Below, one piece after another: positions 17,106 to 56,355 of a stretch of DNA of 64,000 nucleotides; within the stretch, counting starts at the first letter, position 1, and every line of letters starts with the position of its first letter. The notes beneath the pieces were generated by a model. It did not search any database and was not told where the DNA came from. It worked only from the letters and a program-made list of their open reading frames with translations. Location of the stretch: assembly GCA_001468865.1 (NCBI GenBank), contig LDIY01000042.1, positions 22,066 to 86,065 of the forward strand, written 5' to 3'. This stretch comes from a candidate division TM6 bacterium SOIL31. GTDB lineage: Bacteria; Babelota; Babeliae; Babelales; Vermiphilaceae. The position numbers and the translations under genes were made by a program.

Positions 17106-18086
17106 TTGAACATTCTTCGCCTCAGTAGAAATGCAACAATCATAGCACTCCTTTTATCCCTCCTTTTCCACGTATCGACCGTCCTTTACGTCTTCATGCA
17201 AAAAAAAGCACATCTTGTTAATAATGCTGATCAGCAAGCTGAGCAACAACAAGAATTAGAAAGAATACAAAAACAAAAAGAATGGGCAGAAACAAAAGCC
17301 CTTGCAAGCAATTTTGGTGCACCAGTATTTTTTGAAGATGCACCTGAAGAAGAAAAAGATGAATCTGCAGAACAAATAGATCCAGCAGGGCCCCAAGAAA
17401 TTACAGAACCGGAACCACTGCCCGAAGAAAATAATCCTGTGGAAGACAACGTTATAGAACCCACCGCGGTAGCTTCACCTGACTTTCATAGTTTTAATGA
17501 AGTAGCTCTCCAAAAAACAACATCCTCCTTCGCTAACATGTCCTCCGAAGCTTTAGCGAAGGAGGAAGCTACGGCGAACACAGCAAAGAAGAAGCCTCGC
17601 AAAAAAAGAATACACAAGCCAAGAGTTAGCCAAACCAATAATTCCACAATCGAGCTCACTAGCCCCAAAAAACCTCCACTATCACTCGCGCAACTCACCC
17701 AAGGATTTATGCATCGCCTCAAGGATGAAGGAAGATACGCTGTATCAATGCTTGGTAATAAAAGTGGACGACCAACAGAAGAGCAACTTAAATATGAACG
17801 ATATTTGCAGAAACTTGAATGGTGTTTTCAGAACTCGCTTCGGATTAATCGTGATCGCATTCCACCGACACCTCAAGACGCAACTGTTTATATACGTATG
17901 ATCTTGAATCGTGATGGAACACCTCAACAACTTTCTGTAGCAAAACCATCAGGAAACATCTTGCTGGATAAATTTATCCTTTTTGTGTTTCAAGATGCGA
18001 GTTCATCATTTCCTCCAATACCCCCTTATTTAAAAGATGATCCATTTGCAATTACCTGCTTAGTTCCTTGCTCACGACAACTCTAG
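17106..18086 (+). CDS. TonB/TolA-like energy-transducer protein
   Basis: TTG start. N-terminal anchor containing SLLFH (SxxxH-type). Glu/Pro-rich linker EPEPLPEENNPVED. TonB-C-like C-terminal end. Confidence 0.6.
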   Translation: MNILRLSRNATIIALLLSLLFHVSTVLYVFMQKKAHLVNNADQQAEQQQELERIQKQKEWAETKALASNFGAPVFFEDAPEEEKDESAEQIDPAGPQEITEPEPLPEENNPVEDNVIEPTAVASPDFHSFNEVALQKTTSSFANMSSEALAKEEATANTAKKKPRKKRIHKPRVSQTNNSTIELTSPKKPPLSLAQLTQGFMHRLKDEGRYAVSMLGNKSGRPTEEQLKYERYLQKLEWCFQNSLRINRDRIPPTPQDATVYIRMILNRDGTPQQLSVAKPSGNILLDKFILFVFQDASSSFPPIPPYLKDDPFAITCLVPCSRQL

Positions 18087-54339: not shown

Positions 54340-56355
54340 TTACTTCAACCGCACGCCATTCTTCACTAACTCAGGAAATTGCACCACCCGGGAATTACCA
54401 TTTTCATCTTCTGCAACAAGCATCATCCCTTGCGATTCCATTCCTGCCATTTTACGCGGTTTTAGATTGGTGATAAATAATCCTCGTTTACCGATAAGTT
54501 CTGCTGGCTCATATGATTTTCTGATGCCTGCTAAAATGGTGCGTTTACCCATACTACCAAGATCAACAGTCATCTTAAGTAATTTATCGGAACCTTCCAC
54601 TGCTTCGCATGCTTCAATGGTCCCAGTATGTAATTCAACTTTCATCACATCATCAATAGTAATGTAATTATCTTGTGATACTTTTACTTCTTCTTGCGGT
54701 AACATCGATTGTCCTTCTTCTATCGGTTCGGGCCCACCGTCGCTAAAGCTATGGCGGACTTCGCCTGTAGCCTTGGCTAAGGCTTGCTTTTCAAACAATG
54801 TTGGAATTTTTTTCAAGGTAAATGTTTTATTCCACTTACATAAATCATCTATGTTTTTGAATGCATGTTCTTCTAATTTAAACCTTATTCCAAGACTGAT
54901 AAGCAACTCTTCCATTTTATGTGGCATTACTGGCCATAATAAAATAGCAATCATATACAAGCTATGACACGTATCGGAAAGTACCGTCATAAACATCTGC
55001 GGATCAGTTTTAGCAATTTTCCATGGTTCCACCTCGTGAAAAGATGTATTTGTTGCATGAATAAATTTCCACAGTGTTGCAAGCGCATGATGGAACATAT
55101 AATTATTCATATGGCCAGCAAATTCTTCGACTAAAACAAAAGCATCCGCATTCAAACATAGTGAGCTAACTCTAGTCATACCTTCTTGCGGCACAACGTG
55201 CATCACACCATGCTTTTCTGCCAATGCAACCATACGATTCAATAAATTACCTAAATCATTGGCGAGATCAGATTCAATGCGGTTTTCAACATCAGCAATG
55301 CTAAAATCACCATCTTGGTTGATCGGAATTTGGCGTAATAAATAATATCTGATTGGATCAGTACCATATTTTTTCTGCAATTCAATTGGATCAATCACAT
55401 TACCTAAAGATTTTGACATCTTTTGTTTATCAACCTTAATCCAACCATGCACTAATAATCTTTTTGGCAGTGGCAAATCAGCAGCCATCAAAAGCGCGGG
55501 CCAATAAACCGCATGAAAGCGAATAATATCTTTACCCAAAACTTGTACATCTGCGGGCCACCATTTACGCAGTTCATTTTCACAACCTGGTTGACCGTAA
55601 CCAACACCCGTGATGTAATTGGATAATGCCTCTACCCACACATAAATAGTATGCAATGGATCTTGTGGAAACGGCACCCCCCAACGCACGGTTGTGCGAG
55701 AAATGCTTAAATCTTTTAATCCTGATTCAACAAAACTGGTAACTTCATGAGTGCGTTCTTTTGGTGCAATAAAATCAGGATTATTTTGGTAAAATGCAAG
55801 AAGTTTATCGGTGAACGCTGATAATTTAAAAAAGTAACTTTCTTCAGAAATGATGTGCGTATCACGTCCACATGTTGGGCATGATGGTCCTTGCACCACT
55901 TCTGTGCCCTTCGTAGCCTCTGGCGAAGTAGGGTCCTCCGTGATTTCTGCAACAAACGTTTCGCACGGCGTGCAATACCACCCTTTATAGACTGATTTAT
56001 AAATGTAACCTTTATCGATCAAAACGGTGACCAGATGCTGCGCCCCTTTAATATGATACTGATCAGTTGTACGCATAAACTTATCATATTTAATATCGTA
56101 AAGTTGCCATGCATTTTTAAAATCAGGAACAAAGCTATCAATAAAATCTTTAGGAAGTTTTCCCGCTTTTTCTGCTGCTTGTGCTATTTTTTGCCCATGC
56201 TCATCTGTGCCTGTTAGGAAAAAAACATCTTTACCTTGCAGTTTATTCCAGCGCGCAAGCGCGTCAGCAAGCAATGTTGAATAAAGTGACCCTAAGTGGG
56301 GCTTTGCCGTAACATAATAAATGGGGGTTGTTACATAAAATTTATTTTTTGCCAT
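54340..56355 (-). CDS. metG: Methionine--tRNA ligase with C-terminal tRNA-binding domain
   Basis: HIGH-type PHLGSLYS, KMSKS, C-terminal EMAP/Trbp111-like domain (KLLKMTVDLG). Confidence 0.96.
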   Translation of the reverse strand: MAKNKFYVTTPIYYVTAKPHLGSLYSTLLADALARWNKLQGKDVFFLTGTDEHGQKIAQAAEKAGKLPKDFIDSFVPDFKNAWQLYDIKYDKFMRTTDQYHIKGAQHLVTVLIDKGYIYKSVYKGWYCTPCETFVAEITEDPTSPEATKGTEVVQGPSCPTCGRDTHIISEESYFFKLSAFTDKLLAFYQNNPDFIAPKERTHEVTSFVESGLKDLSISRTTVRWGVPFPQDPLHTIYVWVEALSNYITGVGYGQPGCENELRKWWPADVQVLGKDIIRFHAVYWPALLMAADLPLPKRLLVHGWIKVDKQKMSKSLGNVIDPIELQKKYGTDPIRYYLLRQIPINQDGDFSIADVENRIESDLANDLGNLLNRMVALAEKHGVMHVVPQEGMTRVSSLCLNADAFVLVEEFAGHMNNYMFHHALATLWKFIHATNTSFHEVEPWKIAKTDPQMFMTVLSDTCHSLYMIAILLWPVMPHKMEELLISLGIRFKLEEHAFKNIDDLCKWNKTFTLKKIPTLFEKQALAKATGEVRHSFSDGGPEPIEEGQSMLPQEEVKVSQDNYITIDDVMKVELHTGTIEACEAVEGSDKLLKMTVDLGSMGKRTILAGIRKSYEPAELIGKRGLFITNLKPRKMAGMESQGMMLVAEDENGNSRVVQFPELVKNGVRLK
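54731..54785. repeat. Hairpin-repeat unit embedded in-frame in the metG linker
   Basis: Contains TCGCTAAAGCT (identical to 37820-37830) and CTATGGCGGAC (compare CTACGGCGGAC at 37570-37580). Encodes ALAKATGEVRHSFSDGGP. Confidence 0.6.

Follow-up and report, generated by a model that had tools for sequence, protein, structure and literature searches.

Rickettsia palindromic elements (RPEs), as summarized in a review of the original reports, measure about 100-150 bp, and each of their families encodes a conserved peptide (Ogata et al., 2000, 2002, via PMC10969869). A second kind of repeat, the NTS/SRM hairpins, accompanies genes for the Ssn proteins, which are single-domain GIY-YIG nucleases of about 90-100 amino acids (aa) that act on single-stranded DNA (ssDNA), and the layout of gene and repeats has been likened to that of an insertion sequence (Chenal et al., 2025, PMC11893778). 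The features that define Ssn are the conserved domain CDD cd10448 (GIY-YIG_unchar_3) and strand-specific cleavage of the repeat as ssDNA (PMC11893778), and the published search string for SRM repeats is HGTCWYN(0-2)YYVSBRHN(0-5)WNVSBRGN(0-2)RNCYNB (Chenal et al., 2025, PMC11893778). Here we describe a 27-nt hairpin repeat from the candidate division TM6 bacterium SOIL31 that lies, in frame, in the gene for methionyl-tRNA synthetase (MetRS), metG, within a 64,000-nt stretch of contig LDIY01000042.1 (positions 22,066 to 86,065; hereafter the window). By behaviour the repeat is closest to the RPEs and by gene context to the Ssn/SRM system, and it fails a defining feature of each.

The MetRS of the window comprises a class-I catalytic domain (tRNA-synt_1g, residues 6-375), anticodon domains that extend to about residue 490 and a C-terminal tRNA_bind domain (PF01588, residues 576-668). 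An earlier note on this DNA had flagged positions 54731-54785 as an intergenic-type hairpin repeat apparently inserted in frame between the body of the enzyme and its tRNA-binding domain, and the Pfam boundaries agree with that placement, the segment corresponding to residues 524-542 in the linker. MetRS orthologues were collected from 30 related genomes, nine of them from the same genus (GTDB genus representatives). All nine read LFEKP(V/I)RE-x-IEE where the window protein reads LFEK-QALAKATGEVRHSFSDGG-PEPIEE, with 16-18 extra residues; relative to these orthologues the net gain is 48 nt, or 16 residues. In a short-word BLAST search of the genome (1.46 Mb in 69 contigs, 37.8% G+C) with positions 54700-54820 as query, the 21-mer CCGTCGCTAAAGCTATGGCGG from the insert matched exactly at three other places, all judged intergenic by their context (C42:2357, C57:39615 and C36:52899, where C numbers denote contigs; E = 3.3e-5 each), a 19-mer matched exactly at C7:142584, and there were many partial matches. 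Since the residues are missing from every same-genus orthologue and the exact 21-mers recur elsewhere in the genome, the linker residues are an insertion, and the observation that the linker holds repeat-derived DNA inserted in frame is confirmed.

The earlier note had based its proposal on strings shared with the spacer around the tRNA genes, and these comparisons stand apart from their coordinates: TCGCTAAAGCT is present at 54740-54750 and again at 37821-37831, one base from the 37820-37830 first given, and AAGCTATGGCGGAC (54746-54759) matches AAACTACGGCGGAC at 12 of 14 positions, at a site that runs from 37567 to 37580 and had also been placed one base off. Similarity of the segment to intergenic units is significant genome-wide, by profile (E = 1.1e-4, for the clear unit described below) as well as by the exact 21-mers. 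The translation ALAKATGEVRHSFSDGGP was given correctly and the hairpin arms GCTACAGGCG and CGCCATAGC exist, but what had been taken for a single hairpin is a composite of two inverted units (Table 1). The clear unit, which metG reads in antisense, matches the family profile at E = 1.5e-7 when the search is confined to metG. Its decayed neighbour is homologous to the intact unit CCAGCCTTCGCCAAGGCTTCGGCTGG found at the same place in metG of the relatives P0026 and P0011, and compared with the first unit of these carriers it has lost one codon and acquired several substitutions. As DNA, the 63-nt linker region folds at -13.5 kcal/mol, moderately better than shuffles (z = -2.2).

A second family unit in metG had been overlooked. 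It measures exactly 27 nt, or nine codons, on the coding strand (the profile match spans 55905-55932), lies in the connective-peptide (CP) loop between two zinc-knuckle Cys pairs, and is likewise missing from all nine same-genus orthologues. We modelled the protein with AlphaFold2 on an 83-sequence alignment (mean per-residue confidence, pLDDT, 87.1; predicted template-modelling score, pTM, 0.76), and pLDDT drops below 50 in just two segments: residues 144-152, the CP insert, and residues 527-562, the linker with most of the linker insert. In the model, both inserts thus sit in what appear to be disordered loops of an essential enzyme, as the earlier note had anticipated for the linker. We consider it highly probable that the linker segment is an in-frame, two-unit insertion of a dispersed 27-nt repeat into a disordered linker and a tolerated passenger rather than a functional module; we infer that it is translated and neutral.

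Table 1. Coordinates of metG, of the repeat units discussed in the text and of the GIY-YIG cassettes (window positions unless a contig is given).
Feature	Position	Strand	Evidence and remarks
metG (methionyl-tRNA synthetase, 671 aa), host gene	54340..56355	minus	Open reading frame; Pfam PF09334 at 1.8e-107
Complete repeat-derived in-frame linker insert	54733..54786	minus	Residues 524-541, QALAKATGEVRHSFSDGG; protein and DNA alignments
Clear family unit CCCACCGTCGCTAAAGCTATGGCGGAC in the linker insert	54733..54759	plus	Read antisense by metG as VRHSFSDGG
Decayed second linker unit CAAGCCTTAGCCAAGGCTACAGGCGAA, inverted orientation	54760..54786	minus	Read in sense as Q-ALAKATGE
Second metG family unit CCTACTTCGCCAGAGGCTACGAAGGGC	55906..55932	minus	PTSPEATKG, residues 142-150; nhmmer E = 9.6e-5 within metG
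Intergenic unit adjoining tRNA-Leu, nested in the loop of another unit (GCCCAGCCTTCGC[..unit..]TGGGCTATGGCGGGC)	37554..37581	plus	Profile match
Intergenic unit CCCTACTTCGCTAAAGCTTCGTAGGGC between tRNA-Leu and tRNA-Cys; comparison copy of the earlier note	37815..37841	plus	E = 5.1e-6
Top-scoring genome copy, in a 296-aa gene (~17196-18086, plus)	17539..17566	minus	nhmmer E = 4.8e-8; antisense SSEALAKEE
GIY-YIG cassettes (95, 98, 80 aa genes), outside the window	C17:11817-12240; C57:14780-15330; C36:52840-53360		Between or beside inverted hairpin repeats

The family to which these units belong has the consensus TCCTCC-TTCGCTAAAGCTTCG-GAGGA-C, and three rounds of nhmmer over the whole genome returned 99 matches at E<=1 and 59 at E<=0.01. 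From an alignment of 48 distinct units we propose a hairpin in which a 3x3 internal loop separates an outer stem of 6 bp from an inner stem of 3 bp. Its stem positions pair in 91% of cells, against 78.5% in shuffles, and both sides have changed in 53 cells, against 16; none of 500 shuffles reached the observed value for either pairing or double changes, and pairing in registers that were slid along the alignment is only 29-52%. Every cell of the inner stem is paired (100%), GC/TA swaps included. Many of the intergenic copies are nested, sitting in loops of other family units or of FDKLR-type repeats.

Gene calls were crude and based on open reading frames (ORFs), by which 87% of the genome is coding, and a copy was counted as genic when it lay inside an ORF of at least 150 aa. 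On this basis 19 of the 59 copies (~32%) are genic and 40 are intergenic, fewer in genes than random placement would give (binomial p = 1e-22), so that the count of copies inside and outside genes suggested in the earlier note comes to about one third and two thirds. Pfam-confirmed hosts are UvrA, FtsK, IF-2, ribosomal protein S1, FtsZ, MnmA, a PD40/TolB-like protein and a second class-I aminoacyl-tRNA synthetase (aaRS); when ORF offsets were compared with Pfam domain spans, most copies in host genes fell in linkers or tails. In UvrA the insert, a clean 33 nt, is missing in nine same-genus genomes, including one whose UvrA is 92% identical, and the insert in the class-I aaRS, a net 18 nt, is missing in eight. 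At least four of the six reading frames are stop-free in most family copies. No stop codon occurs in any of the six frames in 4 of the 19 genic and 2 of the 40 intergenic copies, a difference that is suggestive only (Fisher p = 0.078). The 296-aa host of the top-scoring copy is a Pro/Glu-rich, TonB-like protein.

The same site in metG has been occupied in other members of the order. A survey of 83 Babeliales MetRS proteins found family inserts directly after LFEKP in nine, five of them with a single sense unit (PAVAKAMAD-type) and four composite, together with a CP-loop unit in six and a unit at a third site (PYSAEA(M/T)KG) in two. In the other carriers the composite consists of a sense unit CCAGCCTTCGCCAAGGCTTCGGCTGG, then GCA, then an antisense unit GTCCGCCATAGCT(C/T)(G/T)AGCGACGGCGGGCC, the arrangement also found in the window, and in P0011 a third unit is nested in the loop of the first. 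In metG of G010, a different insert of the same family occupies the same codon but is oriented the other way (DNA CCCACCTCCGCTAAAGCTATGGCGGAC, read TSAKAMAD). When the tree was built with the insert columns left out, sets of 8, 4 and 6 carriers required 8, 4 and 6 changes, the first figure covering 8 of the 9 linker carriers because the sense-unit search pattern missed P0025. Within its five-row clade (SH-aLRT 99), the window protein is the sole carrier. Monophyly of the four composite carriers, a group named after the tree was seen, is rejected by the approximately unbiased (AU) test (delta lnL 270, p = 2.8e-6). Carriers of an insert at this one codon are scattered over the tree in a patchy, non-clade distribution. 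This recurrence could stem from repeated gain at a hot spot, from gain and later precise loss, or from exchange of segments; we take the metG site to be a putative insertion hot spot, and the loops of Babeliales MetRS seem to have been invaded repeatedly.

Beyond MetRS, a strict 18-nt pattern of the repeat occurs 28 times in this genome, 0-41 times in same-genus genomes, sporadically in the other families of the order, and 0 times in controls. A 21-nt pattern with 17 fixed bases gave at least 120 stretches in a collection of species representatives, where about 4-7 would be expected by chance (hand arithmetic). Judging from record titles among the matches listed, the unit is found in at least 14 phyla; these matches include Bradyrhizobium, Verrucomicrobiota, Acidobacteriota, Bacteroidota and Planctomycetota, as well as Saccharibacteria, Gracilibacteria, Nitrospirae, Elusimicrobia and Armatimonadetes. 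Flanks differ entirely between cross-phylum matches. Because at least five of the six bases 5' of the pattern complement GGMGGA in 114 of the 123 matches listed, the cross-phylum matches represent the same hairpin, and the unit is conserved across phyla.

The parallel with RPEs drawn in the earlier note holds for the behaviour of the repeat, which lies in frame in loops of essential proteins, and not for family membership. Like RPEs, the units are dispersed palindromes, both intergenic and in frame in unrelated essential genes of an obligate intracellular bacterium; they are presumably translated, giving extra peptide at positions compatible with the fold in the AlphaFold2 model, and their presence is patchy between related species. 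Unlike an RPE, the unit measures 27 nt, or nine codons, and the composite 54-57 nt; it is used in several frames and both orientations, often nested or paired, and encodes no conserved peptide domain. The host belongs to the Dependentiae/Babeliales rather than the Alphaproteobacteria, and the core of the unit is common to many phyla. Neither its size nor membership of a described Rickettsia family places the repeat among the RPEs, from which it is set apart by their description and not by comparison with RPE sequence.

A similar mixture of likeness and difference applies to the REP/BIME/REPIN repeats. These share with our family the form of 20-40-nt imperfect palindromes with covarying stems, the clusters of alternating orientation (here, inverted pairs and nested copies), the vicinity of tRNA genes and gene ends, and a copy number that varies between relatives, but REPs are extragenic by definition whereas one third of the family copies lie inside genes. 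A REP/RAYT mechanism was dropped, as the RAYT domain Y1_Tnp (PF01797) had no match in this 95%-complete genome, while six control genomes matched. The hallmarks of miniature inverted-repeat transposable elements are terminal inverted repeats, a target-site duplication and a related autonomous insertion sequence. That assignment was also rejected, given that filled and empty sites show no target-site duplication and that the unit is a single 27-nt hairpin rather than a pair of terminal inverted repeats around a core. A literature search (subscription journals not covered) found no description of the unit, its peptides or its DNA core, and nothing on palindromic repeats in Dependentiae or on RPEs with GIY-YIG genes.

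The resemblance to Ssn/SRM comes from three small single-domain GIY-YIG genes in the genome, encoding proteins of 95, 98 and 80 aa (PF01541 at 61.8-67.2 bits, with no other domain above cut-off). Family units flank the gene on C17, one on the minus strand 21 nt upstream of it and one on the plus strand 19 nt downstream, and the cassette of this gene carries perfect inverted repeats of about 60 nt in which the family unit is nested in an FDKLR-type repeat, a layout resembling an insertion sequence. Its orthologues in two same-genus genomes have units on both sides (G002) or on one side (G006). On C36, the GIY-YIG gene follows directly downstream of clustered units, among them one of the exact 21-mer matches, and the gene on C57 is flanked by a different repeat family. 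Among 31 related genomes, a GIY-YIG gene is present in 15 of the 18 that bear the pattern and in 0 of the 13 that do not; the genomes being kin, this is to be read as a pattern rather than a test. A GIY-YIG ORF abuts the unit by coordinates at 3 of the 120 cross-phylum loci listed. The shared features are therefore a GIY-YIG gene of 80-98 aa between inverted hairpin repeats, repeats dispersed in tens of copies, and co-occurrence of repeat and gene; unlike SRM repeats, the family fails the SRM motif. NCBIfam gave no specific family for the GIY-YIG proteins. Assignment of the family to SRM was dropped, since the published string, with 2 matches in the genome, did no better than chance as judged by Markov controls (0-2) and overlapped 0 of the 59 copies.

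Could the insert instead be kept by selection for a function, as an mRNA or DNA hairpin that lies at the domain boundary and there pauses translation, marks a site of recombination or nuclease action, or tunes the length of the linker? Family units occupy the same metG codon in at least nine scattered lineages, the stems covary family-wide, and the insert DNA of the window is 84-86% identical to the composites of P0026 and P0011, against 67-72% for the flanking coding DNA, despite the disorder of the linker. High identity would, however, also be expected of recent copies of a conserved master sequence; most close relatives are without the insert, while the same family occupies unrelated loops of many proteins; and because the orientation of the unit differs between lineages (PAVAKAMAD in sense, VRHSFSDGG in antisense), the inserted peptide is not conserved. 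We find a selected function improbable on balance. It would be very unlikely that the segment is an ancestral linker deleted in relatives, with the intergenic look-alikes as fragments or coincidence. DNA flanked by hairpins can be lost precisely, and the P0026 composite is bounded by CCA...CCA, such that its removal restores the sister sequence EKPIRE, but dozens of independent precise losses would be required, and this account has to accommodate a 21-nt identity to three other copies, a family of some 60 copies spread over at least 14 phyla, and inserts whose orientation and composition vary by lineage. As for an error of metagenome assembly or binning, in which a repeat was collapsed or spliced into metG, the assembly does consist of 69 contigs and repeats can mislead assemblers. 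Such an artefact is scarcely credible, because equivalent inserts are present at the same site in independent assemblies (ENA, JGI, Logan; P0011 on 5 contigs, P0026 on 2), the window protein is encoded on a 211-kb contig, and the frame is open across both metG inserts, each a multiple of three in length.

Several observations weigh against the preferred interpretation of the linker segment as a translated, tolerated insertion of a dispersed repeat. The decayed unit on its own is a weak profile match (E = 0.17 within metG), a single metG linker unit folds no better than shuffles (z = 0.2), the window insert is known from one assembly, translation of the inserts is deduced from the open frame, and recurrence at one codon could reflect selection for the insert. 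We found no consistent target-site duplication in the flanks of the 59 copies or in four comparisons of filled and empty sites (including UvrA, the metG CP loop and the aaRS), and no clear target motif in the same flanks; insertion contexts that recurred were limited to the loops of other repeats, in which units are nested, and to a possible CCN microhomology at metG. With respect to the nuclease, the closest PDB sequence matches of the GIY-YIG proteins are the UPF0213 proteins 1ZG2 (E = 4e-13) and 1YWL (1.5e-12), and the apparent link between repeat and gene is a correlation among related, non-independent genomes.

Nevertheless, we can outline how a tolerated insertion of this kind might have arisen. 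Two inverted units would have entered the linker, of which the antisense-read one is fresh and the sense-read one has decayed, and the ribosome would translate the extra DNA, adding about 16-18 residues to a tolerant loop. Insertion of a single unit would keep the frame: as the unit is exactly nine codons long, a clean insertion of one copy cannot shift it. Selection would then purge copies except in loops, linkers and tails. Spread may proceed via an ssDNA hairpin, linked to the small Ssn-type GIY-YIG nuclease genes that lie between inverted repeat copies. A more far-reaching version, which we offer as speculation and would not ourselves favour, is that the 27-nt unit is the cargo-free form of a pan-bacterial element that moves as an ssDNA hairpin by means of an Ssn-like GIY-YIG nuclease instead of a transposase, enters preferred sites (hairpin loops, and the same metG codon, hit independently in several Babeliales lineages), and is compatible with coding by design, with its nine codons and mostly open frames. 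If true, loop insertions in the essential proteins of bacteria would have a general source that has so far gone undescribed.

These findings would mean that selfish DNA in essential genes is not confined to Rickettsia, and that in amoeba-associated Dependentiae a much smaller unit has entered the same loops of proteins more than once. Where peptides such as SFAKASAD, VRHSFSDGG and PTSPEATKG turn up in conserved proteins, annotators would do better to read them as repeat insertions than as lineage-specific functional motifs. The putative link to Ssn-type nucleases provides a testable mechanism for hairpin repeats that cross phyla, and a natural nine-codon insert that is tolerated in loops could help to map permissive sites in proteins.

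Other repeats were seen in the course of this work. In metG of G009 (L003), a unit of another family (…PSFDKLRTSG…) stands in the same CP loop, and between them this protein and the MetRS proteins P0031, P0034, P0100 and P0104 carry FDKLRTSG, PYSAEAMKG, VRPE..-type and FAKATPD families in the CP loop, just before the linker or later within it. The commonest 12-mers of the window's genome, ACACTCAGGGCGAACGG (42-45 copies) and ACCCTTCGATACAT (~35), belong to another repeat, translated as TLRANG / PFDT, which frequently encloses a unit of the 27-nt family within its own loop. In the same-genus genome G008, the orthologues of the class-I aaRS (C1:939680-941513) and of UvrA (C1:297925-300496) contain many stops, with 9 TGA and 3 TAA in one match; these may be pseudogenes, products of a frameshift-rich assembly, or something else. 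An Rfam scan of the repeat-rich tRNA spacer at 37300-38000 (E<=10) returned two tRNAs and otherwise noise only. Directly 3' of tRNA-Leu, at 37640-37690 of the window, there is a further hairpin variant, CCAGCCTACGCGTAAAGCTACGGCTGG, which recurs beside tRNA-like 3' ends on C32, C66, C42:2450 and C17, always with ...GGCTGGTGCC/GGCGC flanks.

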